A stretch of 64,000 bases of DNA from Nemertoderma westbladi (Eukaryota > Animalia > Xenacoelomorpha): positions 1 through 64,000 of the forward strand of contig JAUCBJ010007407.1 in the NCBI GenBank assembly GCA_032718475.1, written 5' to 3'. Position numbers and translations under genes: made by a program. The first letter of the stretch is position 1. Each line of letters opens with the position of its first letter. The notes beneath the pieces are model-generated. The model was not told where the DNA came from and made no database searches. It was given only the letters and a program-made list of their open reading frames with translations. Positions 925 to 44,999 of this stretch are shown piece after piece.

Positions 925-1102
925 TAGATACTAGGCTCTGTTCCTCGCCAGTAGTCGTTTGTGTATTGTATCTGTTTGTTTAGATATCCTGGACTGGGAT
1001 TTGTTGTCAGATACTGTACAAGCCCGTATACATTACTAGAGTCTCATAGTAAGATACATCATTACTAGGATCTGGTAAGCGGTATACTACTGGACCCTTA
1101 CA
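925..1102 (+). repeat. Remnant (3' end) of the 5' LTR of element A
   Basis: Direct repeat of 18229-18406, ending ...ggacccttaCA. Confidence 0.93.
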
Positions 1103-1112
1103 GTAGGAAGTA
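1103..1112 (+). promoter_or_regulatory. Primer-binding-site position of element A, non-canonical (GTAGGAAGTA, no TGG)
   Basis: Directly follows the LTR-terminal CA. It is the exact reverse complement of LTR sequence tacttcctac (17131-17140). Element B also starts GTAGGAA at this position. Confidence 0.6.
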
Positions 1113-2116
1113 TTTTATATAAATTAGTATATAGTACTTCTATCATAGTGTATAGTATTCCTACCTTACAGTAGGAAGTATATTATACAAATTCTGAGAT
1201 TAGCGTATAGTATAGTTTAGAATTGTTAGCTATTGAAAGTAGGAGATATTTAAAATCTAAGGTTAGTAAATTTAGTAATTTAGAACGTCCCCTGCTTCAG
1301 TAGGCTTTTAGGGTAGCTAGTACTTTCGTATTTAATATTTGACTAGCTAACAGTTAGTTTGTAGCACTTTGTTTTACGCCGTGTGTGTGCGGTGTTACTT
1401 TTCGGTACTTGAAAAGGTACATAGGGTTTAAAGACCAATTTGTATCGGTACCTAGGAAGATTTTTCGTAAGCGTAGAAGTAAAACTCTCACCTTCGACCT
1501 TTTCAGGACTCAAGGACTCATTTCTGGACCGCTTCGAGGATTAGACCGCTTTTCGCAAAGTTTGGGAGACAATAAATTCGTCCGCGCCGCCGAAAAACGG
1601 AAAGACCCACGTCCGGTTTGTATTTGGGAATTTGTACGACTGGAAGATCAAAGGAACGTAAGTTTTACGACTCGCGTCGTTCAAACTTAAGAAAGCACAG
1701 TAGTACTCAAAATTTGTGGGTTTCACTGTCTATTAGTAGTGTTGTTGGTACTTATTTTCCTGTTAGACGTTGCTGTTTGGCCTATTGTTTATACTTGTTG
1801 ATCTATATTTTGTTAACGTATACCGTTATCTCATTTATTCGTACAAATTTAGCCGGTAGGCTAGATTACTACTTATTTTATTATATACCTTGTTAGTTTA
1901 TTTGTACCGGTTAGGGTATATATATGATATATATATATATCAAGGTAAGTTTGACATTTGTACATTTTGACATTTTGACATTTCGACATTCTGACTTGTT
2001 GATTTATTTGTACCGGTTAGGGTATATATGTACTATATATACCAAGGTAAGTTTGACACTTCAACATTCAGACACTTTGACATTTTATTACCCTTAATTG
2101 ACGTATATAATAAGAC

Positions 2117-4495
2117 ATGAGTGACACACCCCATTCGACGAGATACCCACCTACCGACTATGACTCGTGCGACCCGGACAGATCGACAGTAGACGAACCG
2201 AGAAGGAGAACCCGAGATTCCACCGATGTCACACCGCTTGCGTCGCCGGTACCCCGAACGGAAATACCGGAAGCCGCAACGCGTGGCGACGGCAGAATCG
2301 AAGATTTCCTTACCGTCCCGCAGACTAGATCGCGGGAACCGGACATGGTAAGTTCGACTGGAAGCCAGGAGAACGTTATTAGAAGTATAGGAGGACACAT
2401 GGCCCAGATTACTCGGAACCTCGGAGAAGGTTTTCGCGTTTTACGCGAGTTAACCGCCCCGATGTCGAGATACGAGTTCTACACCTTACAGGTAAGGATA
2501 GAAGGTAGGGTACATGCCTCCGTAGATAAACTTAAAGGTTTGCACGAACTTGCAGAGTTGCGTGGCGACAACTTTACTCAGGTAAAGATAGTAGATAAAT
2601 TGGTAAGTGCGAGAGAAAGCCTTATCCAGTTTAAGTCGGTGATAAGATTGGCTCAACAGGAGCAGTTCGACCAACTGCTAGGTGAGTCAGTTTCGGACGC
2701 GTTGTTACAACCCGAAGAGGAAGAAGAACTCTACTGCCTGGACGGAAGGTTGGAAACGCTGACCAATTTTCTTCGTAGATGCGGCGTACCGATCGACGAA
2801 CCGGAAGTCGAACCGCGAGGGACAACGAAAGTTCTCACTACGGAAGGCTCGCGAGCCTACCAACATCCACCACTGGATAGATCGTTCGTTAGCGTACGGA
2901 GCGACGTTGGCAACGTTGGCGACATTAGTAGAACAGCGTCTGGAATTACTCGACAACAACAGGAGGTTGCACGCCGACAACAAGTCGCCGAGGAAGAAGC
3001 GCGACACCAGATGGCACAGATCGCCATCGAAGGAGAGAAACAACATAGAGAGGACGAGGCAAGAATTGCACAACTCAAGGCGCAAGCCGAATTCGAAGCT
3101 TCGGAGATGCGCAGATTGGAGGAGGACTTAGTGCGAGAAGCGGCAGCCGACGAGTTAGCACGACAGGCGGCAGCTGACGTGTTAGCACGACAGGCGGCAG
3201 CTGACGAGTTAGCACGGAAGAAAGCAGCATCCGACGCTCGTGCCAAGTTGGAGGCGCGGCAAATAAACGCTCGATTAGCTATACAGGAAGCTGAGTTAGC
3301 GGCACAACAACAGGATGCAGATCGAAGCGAAAGGGAGATGCAACTACAGTTCGAATTGAATCGTAGATCGCGCGAGACAGCGAACGCGCAAGCGGACCTC
3401 GAACTCGACGCGAGAGATAGATCTATAAGATCGCGAACTGGACACAACTTGTCTGCCCTGGATCGTATGGAAGCTCGATATTGCGGAATACAGAAGCGGA
3501 TCGAGGAAGGAAGCGTGGGAGCGATAGATCGAGGAGAGGAGTTCGTCGAGGATTACTGTAAACGTTTTCCCCAAGTTATTCCTATGCTCAAACCCACGAC
3601 TCCGATAAAACCGGTCTTTGTTACGAAACCTAAGGAAATAACGCCTGTGCGTTCGACGCAAGGCAACAGGTTTGTTGTGACGGAAATACCGCAACCTAGG
3701 GCGACTTCATCGCCAATCTTAGCAGGTAACGTAACTAGTCCACCTACAGTAAGTCGTAGTCTACTTGTAGGAAGAGAGGAACCTGCGTTTATGACCATTA
3801 AACAGGTGAGTAAACCATTACAAGTTAAACCTGTGACGTGCTGTGCAAATCCAGTTATTTACAGACCGACTACGAAACCCGACTATTTCACTCGACCGTT
3901 GACACAATGTTCGACGCAACCTACGACTTCGTGGAAGGCTTGCGAGCCTACCGAACTACGGAGGAGGATGGATGTGGGTAGTACCCACGGGATCGGACAA
4001 CGTATAGCGAGACCTACGACTTCGTGGAAGGCTTGCGAGCCTACCGAACAACGGAGAGCCGTAGATTCCGGACCACAACGGACGAAATCGAGAATAATAC
4101 GCCGGACACGAACCCGCCAACCACCTTATCCGGACGACAGCGACTCATCTAGTGACTCGGAGTCGACGGAACGGGAAATATTCCGTACTGGAGCGGCGGA
4201 AGATTATAAACGAGAGGAACGATCGACGAACCCCTATATCGACAATCCTCCACGAGAAACACCCCAACAGAAACCCACGTTGAAACCAGCGGAAACGATC
4301 AGCGCTAAACAGTTCACCGAGATGACGGACAGAATAGCTCAACTCGAAGAACGACTCGAAGCGCAACCGTCGGATCGATCACGAACCAGCGTGGAGTTGG
4401 AACAACCTAGACAACATCGACCACCGAGGAGAGAACAGGAGACTAGACGGACTCCGACACATCGAGAAGATGATCCCGTTAATAATTCCTACTGA
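2117..4495 (+). CDS. gag: Element A polyprotein part 1: Gag N-terminal extension (Ala/Glu/Gln coiled coil); ends at an in-frame TGA
   Basis: 792-aa ORF homologous to B ORF 42026-43738. In the same frame as 4553-7024 with only the TGA at 4493-4495 between them; B has a sense codon there. Confidence 0.85.
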   Translation: MSDTPHSTRYPPTDYDSCDPDRSTVDEPRRRTRDSTDVTPLASPVPRTEIPEAATRGDGRIEDFLTVPQTRSREPDMVSSTGSQENVIRSIGGHMAQITRNLGEGFRVLRELTAPMSRYEFYTLQVRIEGRVHASVDKLKGLHELAELRGDNFTQVKIVDKLVSARESLIQFKSVIRLAQQEQFDQLLGESVSDALLQPEEEEELYCLDGRLETLTNFLRRCGVPIDEPEVEPRGTTKVLTTEGSRAYQHPPLDRSFVSVRSDVGNVGDISRTASGITRQQQEVARRQQVAEEEARHQMAQIAIEGEKQHREDEARIAQLKAQAEFEASEMRRLEEDLVREAAADELARQAAADVLARQAAADELARKKAASDARAKLEARQINARLAIQEAELAAQQQDADRSEREMQLQFELNRRSRETANAQADLELDARDRSIRSRTGHNLSALDRMEARYCGIQKRIEEGSVGAIDRGEEFVEDYCKRFPQVIPMLKPTTPIKPVFVTKPKEITPVRSTQGNRFVVTEIPQPRATSSPILAGNVTSPPTVSRSLLVGREEPAFMTIKQVSKPLQVKPVTCCANPVIYRPTTKPDYFTRPLTQCSTQPTTSWKACEPTELRRRMDVGSTHGIGQRIARPTTSWKACEPTEQRRAVDSGPQRTKSRIIRRTRTRQPPYPDDSDSSSDSESTEREIFRTGAAEDYKREERSTNPYIDNPPRETPQQKPTLKPAETISAKQFTEMTDRIAQLEERLEAQPSDRSRTSVELEQPRQHRPPRREQETRRTPTHREDDPVNNSY

Positions 4496-4552
4496 CGAAC
4501 AACGCGCGGAAGGGAGCGACTGGACGACGCCGCCGAACAGGGACGCGGACAG

Positions 4553-7024
4553 TTGGACTTAGTTAGCGAGATTGCGAAATTCGCAGCTAGACACGGATTA
4601 CCGGCACAGCAACCGCCGAAGTTCTCTGGCAACGCGAAACACTGGCGCACACTGGTAGACTACGTAGAGTCCCAGATCGCTAAGTGTGCTTTCACCTCAA
4701 CGGAGAAGTTTAATTACTTGCTCCAAGTCCTGTCTGGTGAGCCGAAACGATTAGCGGAAACCTTTATCGGTGTTCCCGATGCCTTTGAGTTGGCGTACGA
4801 CCGTTTGTATTCAATTTACGGCGGTAATGTCGCCATGGCTAAATCCATCATTGAAGACCTCTGCAGAGGAGGCAACATTTCGAGACCGATCGACCTTTTA
4901 CGACTCGCGGACGAAATAAAGAACGCTATAGGGACTTTACGGTCCATTGGACAACTCGAGTACGCTAACGCACCGACGGTTCTCATTCGAATAATCGGTC
5001 GACTTCATCATCGACTACGACGAGAATGGCGACGCATCGAGTACCAGCGTGAAGAGGCCGGAGGGTTATTAAAACTCACCGATGTCTATCAACTTATTTC
5101 ACGGGAGGCCGTGATCGAGACTCGATCGAACTATACCAATCACCATATCGCGGCGGAAGGGATAGCTGTTTCTGCGCCGACTCGGACAAAACCATTTCCG
5201 ACGAACGTGAAAGCCGTTACTTACGCCACCCCTACTGAGACTTCTAAAGTTCTGACGCCTATCGGCACCACGCAGCCACGACAACAGTTGCCGGCGGACT
5301 TTGTGGGATGCTCATACTGCGAGCGGAACGGCAGAAACCATAGCGGACATAAACTACGTGGATGTCGCGCTTTTAAAGAGTTAGGGATCGAGGAGAGGAG
5401 ACTCCAAATCCGATCTCTAGATTCCTGTTGGAGATGTATGAAGCCAGGACACGTCCGGAAGGATTGCCCGAGCGACGATACATGTTCTCTGTGTGGACGT
5501 AACCATGACGCGTTGCTTCACACAACCAGTCATACTCCGACCAGACGCTTTCGACGAGAGCATCCAGATAAAGCGGCTAGATGCGACGCGCTTTATAAGG
5601 AGCGTGCGCCGCGCGAGATCCGTACCTTTTATACCGACTGTATGGATCAGTCAGGATCATCGGACGAGGATGAGGAGGAAGACGACACCTTTTACGTGCA
5701 TGCAGGTGAGGAACAGCCATCGATAACGCTCCTCACACAGAACCAATTGAAAGGGTTTAGCGTGATTCCTATAAAGATTACCGGAACCCGAGGGAGCAAG
5801 CGTATATACGCCATCTTAGACTCTGCGTCATCGCATAGTTATGTCGACGAACAAGTAGCCGACGTAGTTACGGACATGAGTCAAGGTAAGACTGCTCAGT
5901 ATACTGTAAGCAGCATGCATGGTAAGAGAGCGATCCCTGTGACAAGAGTAAAACTAACCTTAGACACTCTTCTTTCCAAAGCGGAACACAGCAAGGAGGA
6001 GCGCTCATTACTTCCGGTAATAAATTTGACCTTTGCAGCTACGAAGGACTTTAGTAACTTGCTCGGCCCTGTGCCAGAGCAATCACCGGAAGATCGTAAG
6101 TATTTCCGACACCTTGGAATACCGGAATGTCCTGTCAATTATCGTTCCATTGCGATGTTAATTGGGACAGACCAGTTTAACTTACATCAGGTATGGGAGA
6201 CACGCCCATCTGTTATTACAGCGGGCAACCCCTACGCATGTAGAACTCCCATAGGTTGGTATACTAGAGCACCAATACGTTCACTAGAGGTAAGTGACCA
6301 GGAGGACGACGTTTTGAGTACGTGTAGTTTATTGACTAACACGATAGATAATTCTCCTTCACACTCCTGTGGTCCAATTGTACGGACGGCACTACGACAG
6401 ACTTGCGTCACTAACGCAGACGCCACCGATACTGACGTAACCGATCTGGACACGACCATACGGACCTCTGACTTACAACTACTTGCAGTAGACCAGGTTG
6501 TATTGACTACTGAAGACCTAAGGGTTGTTGCCGTGGATGACTCGATGAACGAGGATTTTGGAAGGCTTGCGAGCCTACCGAAAAATCCGAAGGTCATTGA
6601 CCCCACCCACCAGGCTTCGACACCGGTCGTTGATTTTGGAAGGCTTGCGAGCCTACCGATAGATCAAAAGGTTGTCAAACCGCCGCACGACAATTCGACG
6701 CCGACTAGTGACACCGGAAGGCTTGCGAGCCTACCAGACACATTGACACTAGCCACCGCAGCGGACGAAGACGTGGATGAGGACCATGGCGCAGTGCAAG
6801 CAGCGCTTGACCGACTGCTGACTGAACGGACCATACAATGGTTGGAACAGGACTCAGCAGAACCCGGTAGTTACGAGACCGCTATGTCAGAACAGGAAAA
6901 ATGGTCATTAAATATTATGAGAGATACCATTCGCCAGACCGCGAATGGCCACTATGAGGTTGGTATGTTGTGGCGCAATGGACAGGACAACCTAAGTTCG
7001 TTAACAATTACCCGCTTGCTTTGA
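4553..7024 (+). CDS. gag-pro: Element A polyprotein part 2: BEL Gag core (DUF1759-like), Cys/His knuckles, aspartic protease
   Basis: PPKFSGN..HW...KFNYLLQVLSGEP core; CWRCMKPGHVRKDC and CSLCGRNH knuckles; protease ILDSASSHSY. Frameshifted to part 3 by a 5-bp duplication ggaca|ggaca at 6980-6989. Confidence 0.9.
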   Translation: MDLVSEIAKFAARHGLPAQQPPKFSGNAKHWRTLVDYVESQIAKCAFTSTEKFNYLLQVLSGEPKRLAETFIGVPDAFELAYDRLYSIYGGNVAMAKSIIEDLCRGGNISRPIDLLRLADEIKNAIGTLRSIGQLEYANAPTVLIRIIGRLHHRLRREWRRIEYQREEAGGLLKLTDVYQLISREAVIETRSNYTNHHIAAEGIAVSAPTRTKPFPTNVKAVTYATPTETSKVLTPIGTTQPRQQLPADFVGCSYCERNGRNHSGHKLRGCRAFKELGIEERRLQIRSLDSCWRCMKPGHVRKDCPSDDTCSLCGRNHDALLHTTSHTPTRRFRREHPDKAARCDALYKERAPREIRTFYTDCMDQSGSSDEDEEEDDTFYVHAGEEQPSITLLTQNQLKGFSVIPIKITGTRGSKRIYAILDSASSHSYVDEQVADVVTDMSQGKTAQYTVSSMHGKRAIPVTRVKLTLDTLLSKAEHSKEERSLLPVINLTFAATKDFSNLLGPVPEQSPEDRKYFRHLGIPECPVNYRSIAMLIGTDQFNLHQVWETRPSVITAGNPYACRTPIGWYTRAPIRSLEVSDQEDDVLSTCSLLTNTIDNSPSHSCGPIVRTALRQTCVTNADATDTDVTDLDTTIRTSDLQLLAVDQVVLTTEDLRVVAVDDSMNEDFGRLASLPKNPKVIDPTHQASTPVVDFGRLASLPIDQKVVKPPHDNSTPTSDTGRLASLPDTLTLATAADEDVDEDHGAVQAALDRLLTERTIQWLEQDSAEPGSYETAMSEQEKWSLNIMRDTIRQTANGHYEVGMLWRNGQDNLSSLTITRLL

Positions 7025-10000
7025 GGCGACTCAAATCAATAAGGCAGCGATTGTTGCGAGACGAGATGGCCCATATGCAATACAATGCACAACTTCAGAC
7101 GTATCTCCAAAAGGGATACGCCATTAGGATGTTAAATCCCGAGGTAACCTCAGACCAGACATATTACCTGCCACATCATTTTGTTCGACACCCGGACAAA
7201 CCTGGCAAGGTGCGTGTAGTCAACGACTGCGCTGCGCTTTACCAAGGGATGTCTATGAATAGCGAACTGATGGACGGGCCGAATATGAATAATTACCTCA
7301 TGGGAGTCCTAATGCGTTTTAGACAACGCAAAGTGGCTTTCACCTGTGACGTAGAGGCCATGTTTCACCAGGTTAAGGCTTTGGAGCGGGACAGGGACAG
7401 TTTGAGGTTTCTTTGGTATCCGGACGGAAACTTACAACTTCCGCCAGAAACTTACCAAATGCAGGTAAGAGTATTCGGAGCCAGGGACAGCCCCAACTGC
7501 ACCATGTACGCCTTAAAGCAGACAGCATTGGACAGACGAGACCAATTTGACCCAGAAGTAGTTCGGACCGTGGAACGAGACTTCTACGTGGATGACGGCC
7601 TCAAGAGTTGTGACACCTTGGAGCGCGCTACAACCGTAGCACACCAACTCCAGGATTGTCTCGCTGAGGGCGGATTTCACCTGACGAAGTTCGCTTCCAA
7701 CGAACCCGAACTGGTGAACTCATTTGACCCGATGGATCGCAGTGGAGGTGACTTGGACTTAGACTTAGAACCTCTGCCGACGACCAAAGTATTAGGACTT
7801 AGTTGGGACCCTAACACCGACAATTTTAGGGTACGTGTAAGGTCCAACGATCGGACTAGACCTCTCACTAAGAGAACTTGCTTATCGACCATGAGTCGAT
7901 TGTATGACCCATTGTGTTTCATTAGTCCAGTGATCCTACATGCCAGGATCATACTCCGCAGCATTTGGCAAGCCGGACTGGAATGGGACGATCCCATCCC
8001 AGAAAAGTTAGCTGAGCGATGGAGGGACTGGGAAGCCCAACTGACGTTCCTACAAGACTATACCATACCAAGGGTATACTTTCCTTTGCAAACCACCTTT
8101 CCTGCTGATTTAGAGCTTCACAGCTTTAGTGACGCTAGCAAGGATGGATTGGGGGTTACTTTATACCTTAGACGACAAGTGACATCGGACAGCTACGATG
8201 TATCTCTCGTTACTTCAAGGGCTAGAACAATGCCATTGAAGTATATGACTGTACCTCGTGGGGAGCTGCAAGCCGGGACGATATCCACCGATATTGTCAG
8301 TCTAGTTCAACGCGAGCTGGAGGCTAACTTGAAGGTCACATATTGGACGGATGCGACGTTGGTACTTTGGTACATAAACAACGAAACATTCGAGTTCAAG
8401 ACTTTCGTAGCCAACAGACGGGCTGAAATATTAGACCGGTCGCTCAAACAAGATTGGCGTCACTGTCCAGGGAAGCTGAACCCAGCTGACATCGCGTCAC
8501 GGGGGATGCAACCACTTGACTTTTGTAAACCGGACAATAAATCCTTTTGGTTTAGAGGACCCGATTTCCTACAGCGACCATCAGACGAATGGCCACCGTT
8601 ATTCGACGCGACAACCAACACCATACCAGAGGGTGCCGAGATAAAACTCGACAAGGTTGTCAAGTCTAAAGCGAAAGCCAACGCCAAGGTCAAGAGGAAA
8701 AAAGGACGGACGAAATCTGATGACCTGGATGCCAGACCTGACATTACGCCAGACGTCTCGCCAGACACTCGACCAGACGCTTGTACAAATCCTTCGCCGG
8801 ATGTTCCGCGGGAGATTTCACCAGACGTTTCGCCGGATTGTTCACCAGATTACTCGCCAGACTATTCACCAGAAGAGACACCAGATTGTTCTCCGGATTG
8901 TTCGCCAGATTGTTTGATGGAACTCTCGACAGAATGTCTACCGGACGTCTCACCAGACTGTTCACCAGACATCTCGACAGACTGTCCACCAGACTGTCCA
9001 CCAGACTTTAGACCAGACTTTCTGACAGAAGTTACGCTAGACAGACTTTGGGACCGACGACAGGACATTTCGCCGGATGTTCCGCGCTATGTCTCACCAG
9101 ACGTCTCACCAGACTGTTCACCAGACGCTTCACCAGACTGTCTACTAGACACTCCATTAGAAGACCCATTGGAGCGGACTTTTAGAGACGTACCGAATTT
9201 GACTTCTTTGGACGACAGAGGTGTGGCCACAGGGATTACACTCCGCTCGAAGAAGGTACTTGACTTACCTACAGGTAAACGTGTGACTAAGGTTAGGAAG
9301 CTTACAGGCTCACAGGAACACACTGACACTGTAGAGTTGAAACCATTACTGCCAGTCGACACATTAGGTGCGGACGGTAAAGGTAAGACCGTAGAGATTG
9401 ACGTACTTGGGGATTCAGACAAACCTACGGGAAGGCCCGTGGGCCTACCAAGTCCAGACAAGTATCCACACTACGACTACACCTTACCTGATGACGTCAC
9501 CAACACTTACGTTGACAGGATAGTGAACCTAACTAGATCATGGACTGACGCGTGCCGCAAGTTAGCATGGCTCAAACGATTGAGACAATATGCCAGAGGC
9601 AAACGCGACTTTCCTAGAAGACTTACCTTAAAGGAAATTGGCCACTGTGAAGTTGATATCATTCGACATTATCAATTGCGATATTTCGCACGAGAGTTCA
9701 CAGCGATCAAACAAGGTAAACAGATTAAGTCTTCACCGATTTTGAGTTGGAGTCCGATTATTTACCGGGGCTTACTTTGTCACAAGTCCAGACTACAAAA
9801 CATCGACTTTGCACTTGACTTTAGGTATCCTATCATCATACCGCAACACCATGAGTTACAGCGCGCTATGATACTGGACGCACATGTACAACTCAAACAC
9901 GTAGGTAGACACCACTGTCTATCACACTTACGCTCGAGGTTTGTACTGATTAGACCTAGTAAGGCACTGAGTTCGGTAACACGGAACTGTATTATTTGTA

Positions 10001-11016
10001 AGAAGGTGCACGCGAGGATAGGACACCAAGAAATGAGTGAACTACCACTAGCTAGATTACAGGCGTTTAGACCCCCTTTCACTGAGACAGGGATAGACTG
10101 TTTTGGACCCATAATCGCGAAACGCGGAAGGGTACAGGTAAAACGTTGGGGATTGATCTTCACTTGCATGGCCAGCAGAGCTGTCCATATAGAGCGAGTG
10201 ACAGACTTGACCACCAATGCCTTTATCCTAGCCTTACTGCGATTTATCGCTAGACGTGGATTGGTCAAATCCATATACTGCGACCAAGGGACAAACTTTG
10301 TGGGTTCACGGAACGAGATAACCAGAGCTTTGAGAAAATTGGACCAAAACCAGATTTCCGAGGAACTACGTCCTCACCGTATTGTTTGGGTTTTCAATAC
10401 TCCAGACAGTCCGTGGAGAGGCGGCGTTTGGGAAAGGCTGATTGGCTCAATAAAGACAGCTATGGCTAAAGTCGTACCGACGCAACACACCTTGACAGAC
10501 GACCAACTAACGACGTTACTAATAGAAATCGAAGCAATCTTAAATACCAGACCGATCGCTTTGATCCCAGACAATAACGACGTACAGTTTGCCTTGACAC
10601 CAGCGCACCTGCTTATGCAGGCGCCGACGACATTGTTGCCCATTTCGGTACCCGTTGATAGTGACGGATACGGCAACAAAGCTTGGAAAATCACTCAATT
10701 ACTTGCAAATAAATTCTGGGAAATATGGCAGAAATATTATTTGCCCTCTATTTCGACCAGAACTTCCTGGTATCTAAATACCCGATGTTTAAGACGTGGT
10801 GACCATGTTTTATTGGCTGAAGCTAATCTGAAAAGACGGTTTTGGCTGACTGGAGTCATTTTGACCACGCACCCTACATCTGGTGTAGTGAGGACAGTTA
10901 CTGTACGGACTATCGACGGACGTACCGTAGACAGACCTGTACAACGTCTCGTACTCCTTGAGGAAACTAGAAACGAGACGGGAGACTACAAATCTCCACC
11001 CAATATTAGTAAATAG
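6970..11016 (+). CDS. pol: Element A polyprotein part 3: reverse transcriptase, RNase H (Peptidase_A17-type region), integrase
   Basis: YYLPHH..KVRVVND, DVEAMFHQ, FYVDDGL (RT); HSFSDAS, YWTDA, NPADIASRG (RNase H); HHCC zinc finger, GIDCFGP, CDQGTNF, GGVWERL (DDE integrase); BEL C-terminal domain RPVQRLVLL. Confidence 0.95.
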   Translation: MAQWTGQPKFVNNYPLALRRLKSIRQRLLRDEMAHMQYNAQLQTYLQKGYAIRMLNPEVTSDQTYYLPHHFVRHPDKPGKVRVVNDCAALYQGMSMNSELMDGPNMNNYLMGVLMRFRQRKVAFTCDVEAMFHQVKALERDRDSLRFLWYPDGNLQLPPETYQMQVRVFGARDSPNCTMYALKQTALDRRDQFDPEVVRTVERDFYVDDGLKSCDTLERATTVAHQLQDCLAEGGFHLTKFASNEPELVNSFDPMDRSGGDLDLDLEPLPTTKVLGLSWDPNTDNFRVRVRSNDRTRPLTKRTCLSTMSRLYDPLCFISPVILHARIILRSIWQAGLEWDDPIPEKLAERWRDWEAQLTFLQDYTIPRVYFPLQTTFPADLELHSFSDASKDGLGVTLYLRRQVTSDSYDVSLVTSRARTMPLKYMTVPRGELQAGTISTDIVSLVQRELEANLKVTYWTDATLVLWYINNETFEFKTFVANRRAEILDRSLKQDWRHCPGKLNPADIASRGMQPLDFCKPDNKSFWFRGPDFLQRPSDEWPPLFDATTNTIPEGAEIKLDKVVKSKAKANAKVKRKKGRTKSDDLDARPDITPDVSPDTRPDACTNPSPDVPREISPDVSPDCSPDYSPDYSPEETPDCSPDCSPDCLMELSTECLPDVSPDCSPDISTDCPPDCPPDFRPDFLTEVTLDRLWDRRQDISPDVPRYVSPDVSPDCSPDASPDCLLDTPLEDPLERTFRDVPNLTSLDDRGVATGITLRSKKVLDLPTGKRVTKVRKLTGSQEHTDTVELKPLLPVDTLGADGKGKTVEIDVLGDSDKPTGRPVGLPSPDKYPHYDYTLPDDVTNTYVDRIVNLTRSWTDACRKLAWLKRLRQYARGKRDFPRRLTLKEIGHCEVDIIRHYQLRYFAREFTAIKQGKQIKSSPILSWSPIIYRGLLCHKSRLQNIDFALDFRYPIIIPQHHELQRAMILDAHVQLKHVGRHHCLSHLRSRFVLIRPSKALSSVTRNCIICKKVHARIGHQEMSELPLARLQAFRPPFTETGIDCFGPIIAKRGRVQVKRWGLIFTCMASRAVHIERVTDLTTNAFILALLRFIARRGLVKSIYCDQGTNFVGSRNEITRALRKLDQNQISEELRPHRIVWVFNTPDSPWRGGVWERLIGSIKTAMAKVVPTQHTLTDDQLTTLLIEIEAILNTRPIALIPDNNDVQFALTPAHLLMQAPTTLLPISVPVDSDGYGNKAWKITQLLANKFWEIWQKYYLPSISTRTSWYLNTRCLRRGDHVLLAEANLKRRFWLTGVILTTHPTSGVVRTVTVRTIDGRTVDRPVQRLVLLEETRNETGDYKSPPNISK
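8730..9150 (+). repeat. Coding 12-bp minisatellite (ccagac-based; S-P-D-C/V repeats) between RNase H and integrase
   Basis: Repeated tcaccagac/tcgccagat units giving SPDVSPDCSPDYSPD...; B has an analogous PDGQPDML array at 37430-37690. Confidence 0.85.
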
Positions 11017-11708: not shown

Positions 11709-11748
11709 TAGAAACGTAACGATATGTAACCGCATATATTCGTATACG

Positions 11749-12663
11749 ATGGCGGAGAAGATGTATAAAGAGTTACGTCAAGGGTTTACGCAAGAACAGG
11801 AGCACCAGGCGCCATTCAATCGTTATGGAGCTAAAAACTTTAGTGTGTTTGGAGTGGAGAGTATGGCTAGGAGTACGGCCAAGCTCGCTAAATCAAAGGC
11901 GGACCCGAATGTTACGCGACAGCGGTTGGACGCATACAATAAAAGAACGGAGGAATTACGCGCGGAATACAATGCGTTATATCCCTACGACGCGTTATGC
12001 GACGCTAGCGACATTTGCGAGGATCCAGACACCGAAATACGCCAATTGTATCATACGCTGCAATATTTAACGGTAAACGAACCTTTACCTGCAGCTAGAG
12101 ACGAATTTGAAGGAATGCATCTTTATAGACGCGCTCGAGGAGCGGATCCAGAGACCAAGGACGCGTTTTCCGTATACAAACTGTTTTATAAATGTGGAGC
12201 GTGTATGCGCGAGCAAGACAACGCGATTCCTATGCGGTTGAACTCGGAGAACCCCGAGCCGATATTAGCGCGATGTTCACACCACCAAAGTCTACGTTAC
12301 CAAGAAGGCGGATACCCTTTGACAAATCCGTATCATTCATTTAAGATGAGTGGACCGAACGCGGGTGAGATCGTTATTTACGAACCAAAATTAGTCGAAC
12401 CAGACGTCTACAGCATGGTAGTGGACGAGTCTAATAAGTCGACACAAGAGAAATGGGAAGCTTTGAGCCTCTACAGGGCGTACAAGGCGTACGAGAAAGG
12501 CGAGATCGAGGAGTTCGGCGGAAGGCTCGCGAGCCTACCATTCTATTGGATATCCCACGATCAAACCGAACCCAAGGAGATGACACCCGAGCTCTTCGAT
12601 AGTATCACCTTTGCTCAGCGTTTGTCGCAGAGACTACAGATACCTCATGTCGAGATGACGTGA
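11749..12663 (+). CDS. Element A accessory gene, N-terminal part (unknown function)
   Basis: 304-aa ATG ORF whose N-terminus is homologous to B 34600-34795 (APFNRYGAKNFSVFG vs APFERFGAKDYTIFG). The frame stays open after the TGA at 12661-12663 into 12829-15504. Confidence 0.8.
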   Translation: MAEKMYKELRQGFTQEQEHQAPFNRYGAKNFSVFGVESMARSTAKLAKSKADPNVTRQRLDAYNKRTEELRAEYNALYPYDALCDASDICEDPDTEIRQLYHTLQYLTVNEPLPAARDEFEGMHLYRRARGADPETKDAFSVYKLFYKCGACMREQDNAIPMRLNSENPEPILARCSHHQSLRYQEGGYPLTNPYHSFKMSGPNAGEIVIYEPKLVEPDVYSMVVDESNKSTQEKWEALSLYRAYKAYEKGEIEEFGGRLASLPFYWISHDQTEPKEMTPELFDSITFAQRLSQRLQIPHVEMT

Positions 12664-12828
12664 GAACCTCAGCCCCATTCTACTGGAGCGATAGTACCGG
12701 TTGCGAGACCAACTAGTTTTCCTATTAGTATACCGACCCGGAAGGAGACAACTTACGAGATCCCTATAGTTGAACACCCGGAGATCATCTCGAACCTGGA
12801 TTTCCTCCCATCGGTCACCTTCGGTGAT

Positions 12829-15504
12829 GTGTTAGAATCAACCGAGTTGCGTAAAGTAATAGTTCAAAAAATCGTACGCAACGTGCCTCCACATATCACG
12901 GACTTTAAGGAAGTGGATCGCGCGGGGACGGATATCGCACCTTGTATCTTGAGAGGATATCTGACGAAAATGATTCGATTATGGATCGGAGTTGGGACGT
13001 TTGAGACCGACACCGATATCGCGACCAATTGGACTGGTAAACCTATTAGTTTCGATGACGAAAAGTCGATCGGGAGAATTTGGAACCCTACCGACGATTT
13101 ACTCGACGATTGGGACGTGACTAGCCGATCTCTGAAAGAGAATGGATATATGTTCTACGATAATGAAGGAGGAAGCCATCAGCAAAGCCTCACTTCAAAG
13201 ACTATACAGATTAGAGCACCAGATGGCGTGTTACATGTCTTCAGCCGACAGAGGAGTGATAGGAAGATGCCTATGCCGGAAGGAACGACGCAAAGACACG
13301 CGATGATAAAACGGATAGTTAAATCCATGGACCTGGCTTGTAGCATAGAAGCTAGGATGTTGCCAAAGGCCGTGCGAGACGTTGTGTTGGATAAGAGCAT
13401 CGTCAAGATCGGATCCGGTGTACGGGATGACCTCATTAGCGACTTTGCAGGGATGCCCACGGAAGAGGACCGATTGCCTACGCCATACGTGGATACTAGA
13501 CCATTGTTGCTTTGGGCTATTGAGCAAGGATACTTTAGAGAGTATAACACGCTAAAAACTGGGACGGGTTATATCTCATATCTGATGTTCAGTTGGGATT
13601 ACAAGGAGAGTAAGAGGAACAAATACACGGACGTATACGGAGAGGGAGATACCCCCGGCGTAAACGAGTTCGAGTCACAGTTAAAGTGGCGAGGTTGCGT
13701 GTATTGGGCGATTACTTCACCTCCGCGGATAATCTTGCAATACTATTTAGCGATAGAATCTTCGGTTAACGTTTGTTTCATCGCGGACGTAGTATCCAGA
13801 ACCTTAAAGCGACACCCGTTATGTCTTGGCGAAGGACATACCTTTTACGAAGGAGGAAGGATGCATACTGATGTATTCCGACGATTTCTCCAACCCTTTT
13901 ATAACACTGATGCGCACTGCGAAGTTTTCACGCGAGCGGGACTTAGCGTTTTCAGGGACGTCTATCTCACTCACGCGGGAAGTCTAGTCGACAGACCGTC
14001 GATGTTAACGTTAGTACCCTATGACGGGGAACGCCACGCGGAATTCGAACGCCCGGAAGGATCCTGGAAGGCTCGCGAGCCTACCGCCCATCATGACGAT
14101 GTGGATCCGACCGAGTTGGCGCAAATAGACGAACCGTTACGGCAACTTATAGAAATAGAGGAGAACCTTCCGAGGAAGACGCGAACTGAGATACGCGAGT
14201 TAGAGAAAAGCGATGCCATGGTTTGTGTACAACCTACGGAGACGAACATACCGACTGACCCGGATGATGAGAATTATCACGTGGATGGTAGCGCTCACCC
14301 CATCGGAGATCTCATCTATGAGCGAGTTTGGTATCCTGCCAACACTATTTGTGGCAGATGTGGAGCAACTGGCCATCACGCAAAGAAGTGCGGAGCGAAG
14401 CACATATCTCTACCGGATTTAGTATGCAACTGGTGCAGGGATCAACGTTCGCACACTTTCTACACTTGCTGGCGTTTCGTGGCGCAGTGTACTTATTGTA
14501 ATATTAAGGGCCATAGGGCATCTGAATGTCAACTTAGAGACGTCCCCTATGAGCACATGTCAGTTAAAATCGTTCGACAATTATTCGACCATTGGGAGGA
14601 TCTAGCAGACGAGCATGTATCGACGCACCGACGCCGCTTCCTTATGAGAGCACATTTGGGATTTTGGGCCGTAAACCCTCTCATAATGTCAAAGGAAGGA
14701 TATGTATCGGCTATGCCTCAGTACGATGAATTGTTGGAGGTATTGGATATATTGCCGTTGGACAGTGGATTCAAAGTTGTGCGGGACTATTTCTTACAAG
14801 TGCACCCCGACAACAAGAATACTTGGAACTTTCAAACTGTGGTGAACAAGATTACCGCCGGAGAATTCGATAAACTGCGAGTTGAACAGCGGAATCGAGG
14901 AGCCTGGCATTCGATAGCTTGGGCATACCGGAGCGCATTTTATCACAAACGCGTAACCTCGTGCATTCTGGACGAGACCGACGTTTTGCGTGAGACTGGC
15001 TTCAAGGCCACGCCGTTAGCGGAGAAGACGCGTCACCCACAGGATGATCAGCAATTTCGTATACTCAAAGCCCAGAAGGCCGGACAAGAGATTAAGAAGA
15101 TAGTGAATGTCGCCGAGAGGACGACATCAAAGTCGCAAATCCGGATGACTCGGGGCACGGTTTCCCTTGCTAGAGAACCACGCGGAGGGACAGGATACGC
15201 TTTGACTGAACCCATTAGGATTCAAACGACGTCAGAGAGCGAGGTGTCAACGGACGGAACAGTCCTACCTTTTCGACTTCCTCCTAGCGTTGTAGAAACT
15301 CGATCCGATGTTAAGCCGACAGTTGGAATCGGACGAGGATTTAGAGGATTAAGCGCACGACGGATGTGCGAAACTCCCGTCGTCCCCTTTCCTAGCGTTT
15401 TGGAACCACCGACGACTCGACGCCGAAGTCCGAGCCAAGTTCGACCTCGACCACCCCCCAATCGCACTAGAGGACGTGGACGAGCCCGCTCAGCGAAGGA
15501 ATAG
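12829..15504 (+). CDS. Element A accessory gene, main part: DEDDy-type 3'-5' exonuclease-like domain, three zinc knuckles, Arg-rich tail
   Basis: MFYDNEG (ExoI), TIQIRAPDGVLHVF, LPKAVRDVVLDKSIVKIGSGVRDD (ExoII), YVDTRPLL, QYYLAIES (ExoIII-like); knuckles CGRCGATGHHAKKC, CNWCRDQRSHTFYTC, CTYCNIKGHRASEC; tail RGRGRARSAK. Domain call by motif recognition only. Confidence 0.75.
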   Translation: MLESTELRKVIVQKIVRNVPPHITDFKEVDRAGTDIAPCILRGYLTKMIRLWIGVGTFETDTDIATNWTGKPISFDDEKSIGRIWNPTDDLLDDWDVTSRSLKENGYMFYDNEGGSHQQSLTSKTIQIRAPDGVLHVFSRQRSDRKMPMPEGTTQRHAMIKRIVKSMDLACSIEARMLPKAVRDVVLDKSIVKIGSGVRDDLISDFAGMPTEEDRLPTPYVDTRPLLLWAIEQGYFREYNTLKTGTGYISYLMFSWDYKESKRNKYTDVYGEGDTPGVNEFESQLKWRGCVYWAITSPPRIILQYYLAIESSVNVCFIADVVSRTLKRHPLCLGEGHTFYEGGRMHTDVFRRFLQPFYNTDAHCEVFTRAGLSVFRDVYLTHAGSLVDRPSMLTLVPYDGERHAEFERPEGSWKAREPTAHHDDVDPTELAQIDEPLRQLIEIEENLPRKTRTEIRELEKSDAMVCVQPTETNIPTDPDDENYHVDGSAHPIGDLIYERVWYPANTICGRCGATGHHAKKCGAKHISLPDLVCNWCRDQRSHTFYTCWRFVAQCTYCNIKGHRASECQLRDVPYEHMSVKIVRQLFDHWEDLADEHVSTHRRRFLMRAHLGFWAVNPLIMSKEGYVSAMPQYDELLEVLDILPLDSGFKVVRDYFLQVHPDNKNTWNFQTVVNKITAGEFDKLRVEQRNRGAWHSIAWAYRSAFYHKRVTSCILDETDVLRETGFKATPLAEKTRHPQDDQQFRILKAQKAGQEIKKIVNVAERTTSKSQIRMTRGTVSLAREPRGGTGYALTEPIRIQTTSESEVSTDGTVLPFRLPPSVVETRSDVKPTVGIGRGFRGLSARRMCETPVVPFPSVLEPPTTRRRSPSQVRPRPPPNRTRGRGRARSAKE

Positions 15505-16142: not shown

Positions 16143-16152
16143 CATGGAGCGG
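16143..16152 (+). promoter_or_regulatory. Polypurine-tract position (catggagcgg) before the 3' LTR of A
   Basis: The same GGAGCGG directly precedes the 3' LTR in B (32312-32318, minus), C (25513-25519) and D (60708-60714, minus). Confidence 0.75.
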
Positions 16153-16294
16153 TGATGAATTATTTCACTATAAGGTAGCATTTGTAGTTTAACTTTAACG
16201 TAAAAACTTTCGAAAATCCGACGTATTTTGATTAAGTTACAGTAATGTAATATGCCTATTCATATTTGTACACATAAAACCCTTAGGTACTCTC

Positions 16295-16377
16295 GTGGCG
16301 TAGTGGTCAGATGGTTAAGGCGTTGGTTACATTACATAGGTTACGAGTTCGAATCCCAGTCGGGAAATTTGTATTTT
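16295..16377 (+). ncRNA. tRNA-derived Pol III cassette (A box, B box, T-run) inside LTR A
   Basis: gtggcgtagtggtcagatggttaaggcg...gagttcgaatcc followed by tttt. Stems pair poorly, so this is not a functional tRNA. Confidence 0.6.
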
Positions 16378-16440
16378 GGGACCATTTATTTTCGTTTGGT
16401 GCTAATTGGTAGGCCAATGAGAAGCGTACAACGTAGCGAA

Positions 16441-16656
16441 TAATGAGCCAGGCCAATCATAGGGCATAAATTATCTTATTGCTCAAATGTGAGGCAGTGG
16501 AAAATTCTGTTAGGATTCCATGTCCCAGATTAGTGTAAGGGCCGGACTGCGTTGAACGATGAGCTGGGCCAATCATAGGGCACGAAGCACTTTATTGCTC
16601 AATTGTGAAGCTGTGGAAAATTCTGTTTAGTTTCCATGTGCGATTTTAGTATAAAA
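16441..16656 (+). promoter_or_regulatory. LTR A promoter: duplicated ~117-bp CCAAT-box units and TATA box (16650-16656)
   Basis: Two copies of ggccaatcatagggca...tggaaaattctgtt, then TATAAAAGG. B has TATAAAAGG at the equivalent place (31880-31888, minus). Confidence 0.65.
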
Positions 16657-18406
16657 GGCCGGTTTGCCTTCGGTTATTATCTCTCTTACCACACCCTTAT
16701 AACCCTTATGTTAGTTTATTCGGTTTCTTGTTGAAACTTCGTTTGATAATTCTTTGTAAAACTGTAAATATACTGCAATTCCTGAACATGTTTTCCTTTG
16801 GTCCAACTTTGGGACAGCCAAACATCAGGGAGATGGCAGCCTAGACCGTTAGGCCGTAAGCAACGCAGGGAAGGGGTGTCCACAACACGCTAGCGCCCAC
16901 ATTGGATCGACCGCGCACCCCCTTTGCCCCTTCGAAATGCTCCACTTGCTATGCAGCGCCCGCTTTGTGAGAAGGTAAGACTTTGTTCGACGCCCTTGCC
17001 CGCCGTAAGACCTATAGATCAGGGTAAGCGTGACACCGTACTGGACGCCGCAAATTTAGGATCAAATAATTATATCCAGACAACCCCCCCCCCCCCTTTG
17101 TCAAGTCCTACGAATCCCTGGGTTAACCTGTACTTCCTACAGGTGCGAACTATTGCCATTCGTCAGTACGCGAGTACATATTAGGTACGGACAGCATATG
17201 TTCCATAATTTAGTGATTCATAGCACTGACTGTTTGGTACCGGTTCGCTTTGTAGAACGTACATTAGTACCCCCCCCCCCCCCCCCCCTGTCTGGAGTTA
17301 GCTATTTGATCAGGCAAGGAGCATTTCTGCTACCGGCACACTGCTTGGCCTAGGGAGGTTTATTAATATCCTACCGCGCCTTGCCACGTACTGATAGGTA
17401 TTGCTGCTAACTACCGCAGCAACAAAGTTCTAGAATTAAATTAGTATACCAGATCAGCTAACGTACGGTAGCGATTAACCCCTATTCTTATCTTACAACC
17501 AGAATCTGGTATTAGTGCCGATCACGGGTGTAGTTACTAACACTGTGGTTGCCCATTGGGTTGTGGATAGGAAGGAGAGAGCTTTGACGTCATTCGTGAG
17601 TATAAAGTTCTACAAAACGCGACTAGTTTATTTTAGTAGCTAGCGCACGGTATCATTTTAGTCAGAAAATCACTAAAACCTAGTAAAAGGAATTACACGA
17701 AATTGTTTTATTTGTAACACACCCACACACACACGCCCTAAAACATATTGCCCTTAAAGTTCTACTAGCTATAGCGCACTATACATTACTTTAGGTGGAA
17801 ATTGTCTGTATTTGTAAAATTAGGATCTGATTTAGTTGCGGCAAGATAGAGTATTTCACTTTCGTTATTAAACTGTTGATTTCTGTCCAGCAGTTATTGT
17901 TACATTTAGGCTTGACCCTTTAGACTGATTTCGTACAGGGGGATCAGTTATCGTTACATTTAGGCACGACCCCTTTTCGACTGATTTAGGACAGTCAGTG
18001 TTGTTACGCTAGGTCTGTTAACCCACTAGCTCGTATATAAACCATATAAATCACACCGCGGCAAGTTACTGTATTTAGGACTGTCAGTGATAGTTAGGAT
18101 TCGCTGCGCGGGGATTGTTTTCCCGTGAGTTTGGTCTGTTACTGTAACTGTACATCTGCCTCACCGGTTAGAGGACAGGTATCCTTCTGTCTAGTACGTA
18201 GGCATTAGACCCGCTCACGTACATAGAATAGATACTAGGCTCTGTTCCTCGCCAGTAGTCGTTTGTGTATTGTATCTGTTTGTTTAGATATCCTGGACTG
18301 GGATTTGTTGTCAGATACTGTACAAGCCCGTATACATTACTAGAGTCTCATAGTAAGATACATCGTTACTAGGATCTGGTAAGTGGTATACTACTGGACC
18401 CTTACA

Positions 18407-25441: not shown

Positions 25442-25519
25442 CTGTTTAGAGTATTTTTATATTTTAGAAACTGTGATTTTTTATATTTTATAGACTAAAA
25501 TCCCATTTTCTGGGAGCGG

Positions 25520-30423: not shown

Positions 30424-32311
30424 TATGCGAAGAGACAGTAACAAAATACCCTGCAATATCCTACTGTAAAGTTTGTGAATGAAATCATAAATCCGACCTT
30501 CTCACCAAAACAATAAACTCTAAGTAAGCGAATATATATATTGCAGTATTTTGTCTCTTATAACCGGTGAGGCAGAAAACAGTCTACGAACGGACAAACT
30601 TCGATAAAACAAAATCCTGCGCAGCGAATCCTAAAATCAGGCTGACTCACTGACGGACTAAGGGCGCTCGTATACCTTGCCGCGGTGTGATTTATATGGT
30701 TGGGATAGAGAAATGCTAGCTAGGTGCAGAGATGTCTAACTAGCGGGCAAAGCGCAGTACGGACAAAAGTTAATTTTATATATTTTGAGGTGTAAATAAT
30801 TTCTAACGCGCGTTTGTCTTGATTCTAAACAGTCAAAGTCAGTTTTGCTCCTTCACATATATAATTACTGGGTCCGGTGTGCATTTTACAAATATTCTAA
30901 TTTTGTAACTTGTAGGTCCAATACTCACGAATGATAAGGCTCCTTCCCCTTTCGTGTATTTCCAGGACTCAAATTCAGGCATAAGGTTAATACTACGCCC
31001 AGAATTCGGCAATTTAATTTACCAGGTCCCTAATACTAAGAAGAAATGTGTTAGTTTACTACAGTAGGCGTACAGTTACTAATAGCTAGCCTGGTTTTCT
31101 TATCTAGAATTTTGGTTGCCTAGATGTGCACGGCAACTTCCTAACAGAATGTTGGCGGGGACACGGTAGATGTTAGTATCCCTAATAGCCTCAATTTATT
31201 TTGCGCCTAGTTGTAAACTGCCCTACCGCCTGAACGGTACAATCCTAATTCAGGTAAAATACAGTAACCCTTCTGGCCTACAAGTTCTAATGCAATGGAC
31301 ACCGTTGTACTACAAACAGTCGCCGACGCACCTATACTTAGCAAGAGTTAGGCGTACAGTTTGCTGCACCCTACCAATGTGTATGCCTTGTACCGGTGTG
31401 CCTGCGTCCTATCTGTGTACTAGTATCTCTGCCTGATCTCCTCTCCCCCGTAGGAATATGAAGGTCTACTGCGGGTTTTTCTCTGAATTAAGACAGTACG
31501 GTCCCTAGATGTAATTTTTTAGCGCACAGCGTGTCACTACCTCTACCTTTGATCTTTGGTCTTACACTTAGGTAGCAAGGCATTGAACGCTGTCTAACCT
31601 TCAGGCGATGGGCGAATAACTCAAGAATGATATTGCGGGTTGTCTCCTCCTACATTCCTCAGATGTTCCCGTTCATTGCTGGGGTCCGATGTTTAGCCTG
31701 CCATCCTGTCCCTTAGTTGGGTTCACCGTGGTGAAGCATAGTAAAACAGATAGGAAAAGGGCAGATGTAACAAGTATTTCTAACTTTTATTACAGAATTA
31801 AACAATAACTATTATACAATAAATGTAACAAGAGTGAAGATAGATAGATAGAAAGAGATAACTAATGAACGAAATCGCACCTTTTATAGCAAATTTGTGC
31901 TGCAATCAATCGAGAAAATTCTCGATTGTTCTATGAGTTCTAATAGGTTTTTAAAGATAACTATTGGTCCAGCGAATATATAACTTGCACGACATTGGTT
32001 ACTATCTAATAACTGCAATCCCATTGGTTAATCTACTTCGAGCAAATGCAATTTAATTTGTAGCGGTTAATTTAAATGAGTTGAAACTCTGCACAAAAAA
32101 TAATTCGCACCTACTAGGATTCGAACTCAATACCTACTACATATAATTTCCAACGCTTTACCGACTGAGCTACTGAACCACTTGAATAATCATCGTACAA
32201 ATAGATATAGTAAATACAAATGAGGACTTAATGTAGTCTTTTATAGCAAAGTTAATTCGAACAAAATAAAATTTTGAAAATCCACGGCATTTATGAGAAT
32301 ATAATTCTATA
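30424..32311 (-). repeat. 3' LTR of element B (1888 bp, TA...TA termini)
   Basis: Direct repeat of 45000-46882; abuts the PPT ccgctccatg (32312-32321). Confidence 0.95.
32096..32181 (-). ncRNA. tRNA-derived Pol III cassette in the 3' LTR of B
   Basis: Minus strand gtggttcagtagctcagtcggtaaagcg...gagttcgaatcc...tttttt. Confidence 0.62.
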
Positions 32312-32823
32312 CCGCTCCATGAAAACAGGATATTATCGTGCATAAAATATACGGTTTTCACCAATACTAAATCAAATTATGGAATACTTGGGACGTACTT
32401 ACATATTTACAAATTAAATTATCAACAATAATACCTCTACATAATAATTCGATACAAAAATAATTACAAATTCAAATTTACGTATTTAAGGCTTTATTAA
32501 GTAAGTACAATATAAATCTAAATTAAATTCACCAAAATAAATCTATTGCATCTCAAATATTGCATAAATTCAAAGAATCACAAATACTAATACTACTTAA
32601 ATATAAAACAAATTGCATAAGTGCGGAATAAATCACAAGAAAGGCTCACAAGTCTTCCGTCTGCTCTTGCCTTCTATTTACTGCGAATACAAATACTGCT
32701 TCTTTATAAAATATAAATTGCATAATATTCGAAACAATAAATTGCGTAAGTTTGGAATGACTACAAATATAGCACTTTCTAAATATAAATCTTTCTAAAT
32801 GCAAATCTTTACTAAATATAGAT

Positions 32824-32930
32824 ATAAACTGCATAAGTTTAGAACAATATAAACTGCATAAGTTTAGAACAATATAAACTGCATAAGTTTAGAACAATAT
32901 AAACTGCATAAGTTTAGAACAATATAAACT
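32824..32930. repeat. 25-bp tandem repeat (ataaactgcataagtttagaacaat) x~4 in the 3' UTR of B
   Basis: Direct inspection; degenerate copies at 33045-33100. Confidence 0.85.
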
Positions 32931-33193
32931 CTTTAGGCATCTCAAATATAAAATATAAATCTTTCAAATATAAATTCCTTCTAAATACAAAACTTTCTGA
33001 ATTTCATAAAATCGGAACAATACAAATACATAAACTTGGGGCAATAATAAATTGCATAAATTTAGAACAATATAAATTGCATAAATTTAGAGCAATATAA
33101 ATTTTAAACAATACAAATTACACAAACAATACATAAGACAAACAATTCATAAGAAAGGCTCACGAGTCTTCCGTCCACTCCTTCCTTCCCGCT

Positions 33194-34795: not shown

Positions 34796-35461
34796 TCTTT
34801 GAAGTATGGTTATATAATCATTGCTACTAGAGGGAATACAACAGAGTTTATTGTTAGTTGTGAGGAGATGTGAGAGTTTTAGTCTGCCCTTTTGGCTCGA
34901 CAACGCTCTAACCTCCTACCCATAGCCTAAGATCTAGGGTTTCTTTAATGACACGCTGCTTCTTATCTAAAATTTTTTGCCGAAATAAAAACGATTTTGG
35001 GCTAAACTGGCTGTGAGTCTAAAATACTCACTTTTTGATCCCAAACTATTATCAGAAAATAAGCAATCAAGAGTTAGTAATAAATATAGGGAAGTCTATT
35101 ATTTGACGTAACTTATTGAAACAAGACTGTGTAAAATTTAATTAAAATTTAAGAAAGGCTCGCGAGTCTTCCATTCTCTTGTTTCTCTAATTTTAAGTTC
35201 CACCCGACTGTACCCTGAAATCTATTCACTGGAGAAAATTTTAAAATTTTTTCAAATCCAAATGGATTGTCTAAAATTTCGAAAATGTCTCAATATTGTG
35301 AGTTCCAAGTAGAATTCCATTTCTTATACCTACAAATCCCGCTCCTATGTGACACATAAGGGTACTACGGTGCTCAATGTTCACATATAAAGACAATGGA
35401 ATTCTACCGCTGTCTTTACTACGGTGTACAGGTACGTGGAAATCTATTTGTAAACTCCTTA

Positions 35462-44988: not shown

Positions 44989-44999
44989 CATATTCCTAC
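44989..44999 (-). promoter_or_regulatory. Primer-binding-site position of element B, non-canonical (GTAGGAATATG)
   Basis: Adjacent to the 5' LTR end; exact complement of LTR sequence at 46026-46036 and 31450-31460. Confidence 0.62.

Follow-up and report, generated by a model that had tools for sequence, protein, structure and literature searches.

Why would a long terminal repeat (LTR) retrotransposon carry, behind its pol gene, a third gene that is not an envelope gene and that probably encodes a nuclease-like domain? The question is raised by a stretch of 64,000 nucleotides (nt) from Nemertoderma westbladi (assembly GCA_032718475.1, contig JAUCBJ010007407.1, positions 1 to 64,000 of the forward strand), called the window here. 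One of its retrotransposons, element A of the BEL/Pao type, holds a third open reading frame (ORF3) between the end of pol at 11016 and the purine tract and 3' LTR at 16146-18406 (Table 1). ORF3 combines three zinc knuckles with what, judging by its motifs, is very probably a DEDDy-type exonuclease domain like those of WRN and EXD2, the best reading of amino acids (aa) 461-694, and this exonuclease-like domain is under purifying selection.

The first-pass annotation, made from the letters alone, had described ORF3 as a single frame of about 1250 codons broken by one TGA. This holds: the frame has 1251 codons, with the TGA at codon 305. Only the start of the second piece had to be moved, from 12829, which is merely a GTG, to 12664, from where the frame is open. 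Element A is well represented in sequencing data: more than half of the sampled element words were present in four of nine runs (one organism, three studies), contigs of X1, X2 and X4 span 30 of 30 bins of 11000-16500, and 6683 contigs of X2 fall on 5.5 kb. At the stop codon, the summed contig depth that departs from the window copy was 238 of 238 units in X1, 23382 of 23428 in X2 and 21047 of 21097 in X4, more than 99% in each, so the frame is open in other copies. Read-through of codon 305 was ruled out because other copies differ there.

As the annotation also held, ORF3 is not env, because it has no membrane helix, no hydrophobic, signal-like N-terminus and no RxK/RR furin motif; its highest 19-residue Kyte-Doolittle mean is 1.48. 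The annotation was equally right about the three CCHC knuckles and the Arg-rich tail. The knuckles follow the patterns CX2CX4HX4C (14350), CX2CX5HX4C (14425) and CX2CX4HX4C (14488), unlike the knuckles that element A has in gag, and score 21.1 bits with Pfam zf-CCHC against a cut-off of 20.8. Behind them lies a conserved domain of no known family, for which Pfam returned no match.

In the exonuclease-like domain, the ExoI candidate is D471-N-E473 (nt 13159 and 13165), with IQI at aa 486-488. The ExoII block, LPKAVRDVVLDKSIVKIGSGVRDD, occupies aa 538-561 and ends in D561, with VDT at aa 581-583, and the ExoIII candidate is QYYLAIE with Y666 and E670. These motifs (DxE, IQI, LP..V.., VDT, QYYLAIE) sit where the first-pass annotation had placed them, and the last catalytic aspartate does read as glutamate (Y666-L-A-I-E670). 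All four predicted catalytic places are acidic. D561, in a K.G.G...D block, supplies the ExoII aspartate of PF01612-type exonucleases; the Y-x-x-x-D of ExoIII is missing, and we therefore file the domain as DEDDy-like rather than as a strict member, because ExoIII has E for D.

To score the domain, we used a custom profile of 120 bacterial WRN/EXD2-like domains, a family named in advance by the first-pass annotation. The ExoII block ranked first of 1228 positions (23.5 versus 2.7 bits), ExoI 15th of 1244 and ExoIII 18th of 1235; the two strands between them ranked 41st and 67th. The flanking motifs ExoI and ExoIII, placed by motif and not by automatic alignment, have the expected order and spacing around ExoII, and the 80 central residues of the domain align with WRN/EXD2-like proteins without guidance. 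The whole domain scored 8.1 bits, largely from 26 residues, mainly ExoII. No shuffled sequence reached this score, either globally (0 of 2000; 979 reported, best 5.8) or locally (0 of 2000; 1018 reported, best 3.5). When the window was cut into 1626 six-frame chunks, the three best-scoring ones were all the ORF3 domain, and the next scored 1.7. For comparison, RNase D scored 25.5 bits and a viral Egalitarian-like domain 14.0. With hhalign the domain scored 30.4 at a probability of 35%, and the best of 200 shuffles scored 23.7. We give no weight to a joint test of ExoI and ExoIII patterns (0 of 20000 shuffles), because these patterns had been composed with the sequence already in view.

A search of the ESM Atlas with aa 461-694 pointed to the same family: among named clusters, 30 of 30 matches were 3'-5' exonuclease or Werner-like clusters, and the top three scored 0.93, 0.92 and 0.92, with PF01612 on 92%, 34% and 38% of their members. 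Of shuffled proteins, 4-10% also reach 0.9, but not for a family that had been named in advance. The Pfam match of DNA_pol_A_exo1 type that the first-pass annotation had suggested looking for did not appear in ORF3; the domain gave no match to the Pfam exonuclease model at E up to 10, and pairwise comparison with the viral Egalitarian-like domain and E. coli RNase D gave nothing. The annotation's DEDDy assignment thus stands in part: the Atlas and the profile favour it, Pfam is silent, the last D is E, and only ExoII is firm. We lean towards the domain being catalytically active.

Structure prediction left the fold unconfirmed. Single-sequence AlphaFold gave no compact fold (predicted local distance difference test, pLDDT, 32; predicted template modelling score, pTM, 0.21), nor did a run seeded with 25 WRN/EXD2-like middle segments (pLDDT 56, pTM 0.35). 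The seeded model has a beta hairpin at IQIR/LHVF, a region without seeded rows. With Foldseek, EXD2 took ranks 1-11 for this model at E 0.03 or worse, a partly circular result as the seeding rows were EXD2-like; there was no match at E 0.001 or better. The best VIA-align hit (Z 4.1) was to unrelated helices. Relatives of ORF3 were found in 0 of 4533 candidates and, for the knuckle region, in 0 of 70 among shorter proteins; metagenome and viral contigs yielded none. A repetitive 296-aa protein, the sole match in a library of 1.84 billion, was judged spurious, and a weak knuckle match in a bacterial contig was dropped.

Do the copies bear the domain out? On its 702 nt we counted 25 (X1), 675 (X2) and 329 (X4) contigs, 8, 104 and 89 of them less than 90% alike; among these contigs no insertion or deletion of at least 3% share is listed inside the domain. 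We scored the best-supported 40 of 104 variant sites in the domain, each singly: 28 were synonymous and 12 non-synonymous, with 28 at third positions, against an expected synonymous share of 0.22-0.30. The resulting ratio of non-synonymous to synonymous variation (pN/pS) is 0.12-0.18 with p at most 1.5e-7, a value that overstates certainty because sites are linked within contigs and the subset was chosen. The first-pass annotation had suggested such a comparison of copies, and its outcome for these sites is that the domain does not evolve neutrally. D471, E473, D561, Y666 and E670 are absent from these 40 sites. Loose ends of diverged relatives keep, by eye, DGVLHVFS, LPKAVRD, NEFESQL and LQYYLA, with mostly silent changes. 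X6, guessed to be an RNA run, has low depth over 19 of 30 bins, none of them in the exonuclease domain.

Three further BEL/Pao elements in the window help to place ORF3. Sister element B is a full-length insertion whose identity to A is 74% in the knuckle region, 73% over the next 140 residues, 74% in reverse transcriptase (RT) and RNase H and 80% in integrase, with synonymous sites saturated. Elements C and D, at 18407-26685 (+) and 59490-64000 (-), belong to a decayed second family whose third ORF ends in a basic tail; the pol of C is 40-42% identical to that of A. In D, the third ORF can be aligned with the final knuckle of A and the domain behind it (Table 1), and no exonuclease was seen in the third ORF of this family. 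We infer from this that the knuckle module is the older core, and that the exonuclease was either joined to it later or lost from C and D.

What could the substrate of such a protein be? Neither A nor B has a tRNA primer site, that is, a TGG after the 5' LTR. As in Tf1-type elements, the primer-binding position of each is complementary to its own LTR over about 11 nt. The complement word occurred in 12 of 3000 shuffled LTRs for A (10-mer) and in 3 of 3000 for B (11-mer), and only 0.16% (A) and 0.11% (B) of internal words have such an LTR match. The letters of the two self-primers differ by compensating changes, so that cross-pairing extends over only 7 nt; they lie at the same relative LTR position, in LTRs otherwise alignable in short blocks only. 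Some 430-480 nt upstream of the 11-mer, the LTRs of A and B each carry TATAAAAGG together with three CCAAT boxes. In a local duplex fold, the pairing runs on into the LTR end in B. A and B thus appear to prime from their own LTR rather than from a tRNA.

Several other features of the LTRs and leaders were noted. Around 1103-1180 in A, the LTR end and primer position occur a second time about 68 nt further downstream, with a partial complement before the copy. An intron-derived primer, considered for an acceptor-like site directly after the 11-mer in A, was set aside because B lacks that site. Rfam found nothing credible in either LTR. Near the LTR starts lie tRNA-like A-box/B-box patterns (about 16290-16370, +, and 32105-32180, -), which neither ARAGORN nor Rfam called, and an ARAGORN tRNA-Cys at 15802-15892 was taken as chance in AT-rich sequence. 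A and B share blocks at 18040-18170 (with its B counterpart), at 17590-17603 and at about 11510; these include GTGAGT donor-like sites in the LTR and ahead of ORF3 and may mark introns or a poly(A) region.

Taking these observations together, we tentatively propose, as plausible rather than probable, that the exonuclease and knuckles of ORF3 trim the element's own RNA and so finish the LTR-derived primer for reverse transcription. The 11-mer would lie inside a longer transcript, because it is about 450 nt downstream of the predicted CCAAT/TATA promoter. It would anneal beside the 5' LTR and leave a 3' overhang; the knuckles would grip the RNA, as the zinc-finger domain of TbRND does; and the exonuclease would remove the overhang as far as the duplex, leaving a 3'-OH for RT to extend. 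Primer maturation was among the roles suggested in the first-pass annotation. That idea gains a concrete substrate from the lack of a tRNA primer site in A and from the pairing of its primer-binding position with the element's LTR; the action of the enzyme upon it we infer. It is conceivable, though rather unlikely, that this BEL/Pao lineage has a complete priming kit of its own, with an LTR primer RNA, a matching site and a knuckle exonuclease that makes a flush 3'-OH, and needs neither host tRNA nor RNase H cutting of the Tf1 type.

A number of results weigh against this proposal. On the side of the enzyme, searches of ORF3 in Pfam, NCBIfam, PHROGs and PDB sequences gave no exonuclease; automatic alignments were correct for ExoI in 2 of 15 runs and for ExoIII in none of 15; the top three Atlas matches shared 167, 161 and 168 features where 170 is usual, and a longer, untrimmed ORF3 query of the unfiltered Atlas gave no usable match; and glutamate stands where the last catalytic aspartate is expected. 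On the side of the primer, the 11-bp duplex has a pairing probability of zero in the fold of B's whole 1535-nt leader, the transcription start is a prediction from the CCAAT/TATA promoter, and Tf1 generates its 11-nt self-primer through RNase H with no extra nuclease required (PMC7175516). Finally, the window copy of B is without the exonuclease domain although its LTRs are young and the self-primer signature is present; it may have moved in trans or decayed later.

Another candidate target is a 20-nt quasi-palindrome that recurs in both elements, with 11 copies in A (+; 2842, 3933, 4026, 6560, 6638, 6716, 11369, 12520, 14066, 15518 and 15654) and at least 8 in B (-; 42402, 42318, 42234, 39730, 37702, 35172, 33172 and 32658). 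Two copies lie within ORF3 of A. The sites are both coding and non-coding, and their places in A and B mostly match. None of 100 shuffles held a single match. The motif may be a protein-binding DNA site or an RNA hairpin; the hairpin is not established because copies in B have an unpaired position in the sense-strand stem. It could matter if ORF3 works without catalysis, as an RNA-binding adaptor like Egalitarian or EXD1 whose exonuclease fold and knuckles would bind unspliced element RNA for export, localisation or packaging, perhaps at this very motif. Egalitarian retains all five DEDDy residues that are dispensable for its RNA binding and function (10.1101/2025.08.03.668247), and the glutamate at the last catalytic position and the Arg-rich tail of ORF3 would suit such a role, as would the absence of the motif from C and D, which show no exonuclease. 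The predicted active-site positions, however, are all acidic, the unpaired stem position argues against an RNA target, and nothing links the ORF3 protein to the motif. We regard an adaptor as a doubtful but serious alternative.

Mut-7 and Nibbler have roles in small-RNA processing, involving PIWI-interacting RNAs (piRNAs) and small interfering RNAs (siRNAs). ORF3 might accordingly be a counter-defence nuclease that degrades or over-trims piRNAs, siRNAs or nucleic-acid by-products and so weakens silencing. The abundance of the family (the X2 contigs above) would fit, as would the small-RNA work of the cellular DEDDy kin Mut-7 and EXD1 and the possibly higher copy numbers of the rotifer elements Juno1/2, which have a DEDDy ORF (PMC5408684). 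That study, however, saw no clear relation to copy number, and small RNAs continue to cover those elements, and counter-defence explains the fixed link of exonuclease and knuckles no better than the other readings, which makes it improbable. That the conserved domain has another fold and resembles ExoII only locally is more improbable still. In its favour are the lack of a curated-family or solved-structure match, the non-compact models and a profile signal owed mostly to 26 residues; against it, the Atlas and the profile are independent methods and both point to the family named in advance, the central 80 residues need no help to align with it, and the flanking motifs stand in the right order and spacing at high ranks.

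How does the primer-trimming ORF3 that we favour compare with known systems? DEDDy third ORFs as such are known: they were described in the bdelloid LTR elements Juno1/2 and Vesta2/5 and in Terminons, with a DEED tetrad and an untested function (Rodriguez, Kenefick, Arkhipova 2017, PMC5408684; restated in PMC5718144, PMC6431247 and PMC6338049). Like the Juno/Vesta ORF3s, that of element A is a non-env, DEDDy-like frame after pol with no membrane helix and an altered tetrad. Unlike them, it has a BEL/Pao carrier with no tRNA primer site, the altered residue is the last (DEDE), and the 1251-aa protein includes three CCHC knuckles as well as two domains that belong to no known family. With WRN/EXD2 (PF01612; PDB 2fbt, 6k17) and their Bacteroidota kin it shares the LP..LL.D..I.K.G.G..DD block, a candidate DxE before it and a YxxxD-like motif after it; it differs in that it has inserts of about 30 and 20 residues, does not reach the Pfam cut-off, ends its catalytic set with E rather than D and lacks a helicase domain. 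TbRND (PMC7797062; PDB 7c42/7c45) likewise has a DEDD exonuclease followed by CCHC fingers, and its zinc-finger domain makes the DEDD domain bind and trim RNA better; unlike ORF3 it is a cellular enzyme with four fingers near the nuclease, and the likeness is one of architecture. Self-priming is known from Tf1, Tf2 and Tj1 (PMC4600332, PMC6317226, PMC7175516), where, as appears to be the case here, the primer position pairs over 11 nt with the element's own LTR and no tRNA is used (PMC4600332, PMC7175516). In Tf1 the primer is the very start of the RNA, its first 11 nt, released by RNase H, whereas the match in A and B lies about 450 nt past the predicted promoter and their LTRs measure 1.9-2.3 kb.

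By its proteins, element A is BEL/Pao. It shares with Belpaoviridae/Semotivirus, in the profile of the International Committee on Taxonomy of Viruses (PMC8742986), the order gag, protease, RT, RNase H, integrase, the Pao-type Pfam families (DUF1759, Peptidase_A17, Integrase_H2C2, DUF5641), LTRs with a purine tract and an optional third gene. It is atypical against that description because no TGG follows the LTR, where an 18-nt primer site for tRNA-Arg or tRNA-Gly is expected; its LTRs exceed the stated 0.2-1.2 kb, the elements (16-17.5 kb) exceed the stated range, and the third gene is non-env. The profile lists env-like third genes only, together with tRNA priming, and the available part of PMC3118150 likewise gives env-like third genes only. 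Our literature searches, conducted outside subscription journals and Repbase, listed neither a BEL/Pao element carrying an exonuclease gene nor a title on a self-primed one. New here, as far as these searches go, are the BEL/Pao carrier of an exonuclease-like third gene and the self-primer anatomy in A and B. If the reading is right, exonuclease cargo would extend from Gypsy-type and Penelope-like elements to BEL/Pao. In the literature surveyed, no function is shown for retrotransposon-borne DEDDy genes. This family supplies many selected copies and two candidate cis-targets, the 11-nt self-primer and the 20-nt motif, and the question why retrotransposons carry such nucleases becomes open to direct assay.

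Table 1 Positions of the features of elements A and B in the window
Feature	Position	Strand	Remarks
5' LTR remnant of A (3' part, ends CA)	925..1102	+	178 nt, 98.9% identical to 18229-18406
Primer-binding position of A	1103..1113	+	no TGG start; complementary to own LTR
gag and protease region of A	2114..7024	+	Pfam DUF1759, zf-CCHC; stop at 4493-4495
pol of A (RT, RNase H, integrase)	6958..11016	+	Peptidase_A17 5e-40, DUF5641 5e-18, Integrase_H2C2; out of frame with upstream piece here
ORF3 of A	11749..15504	+	1251 codons, third gene of BEL/Pao LTR retrotransposon
Internal TGA of ORF3	12661..12663	+	codon 305; stop private to the window copy
Likely DEDDy-type (WRN/EXD2-like) exonuclease domain	13129..13830	+	aa 461-694; D471, E473, D561, Y666, E670
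Three CCHC zinc knuckles	14350..14529	+	motif patterns and Pfam zf-CCHC
Conserved post-knuckle domain of no known family	14530..14973	+	identity 73% to element B, 24% to element D (E 3e-11)
Arg-rich tail	15322..15501	+	R is 14 of the 60 final residues
Purine tract before 3' LTR	16146..16152	+	common to elements A to D
3' LTR of A	16153..18406	+	2254 nt, TG...CA; three CCAAT boxes, TATAAAAGG at 16650
Candidate self-primer of A	17130..17140	+	10 Watson-Crick pairs and one G-U with 1103-1113
Element B, full-length insertion	30424..46882	-	LTRs 1883/1888 nt, 99.05% identical; 5-bp target duplication
ORF3 of B	33194..34795	-	stretch corresponding to aa 57-792 absent, exonuclease included; one frameshift and one stop
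Primer-binding position of B	44989..44999	-	11-nt complement in both B LTRs (46026-46036, 31450-31460)

Some remaining features of the window may be recorded. The LTRs of B (30424-32311 and 45000-46882) start and end with TA, not TG...CA. Between RNase H and integrase, both elements have 12-nt tandem repeats that encode a DxSP/DGQP-type spacer (8745-9161, +, in A; 37432-37682, -, in B). A 150-codon frame at 57268-57720 (+) has only a weak DUF7822 score. By eye, we also saw a non-LTR-type RT frame at 47587-49605 (-) and a Gypsy-like integrase fragment at 49588-50127 (+), and an inverted pair of 15/17-nt satellite arrays occupies 54025-55958.

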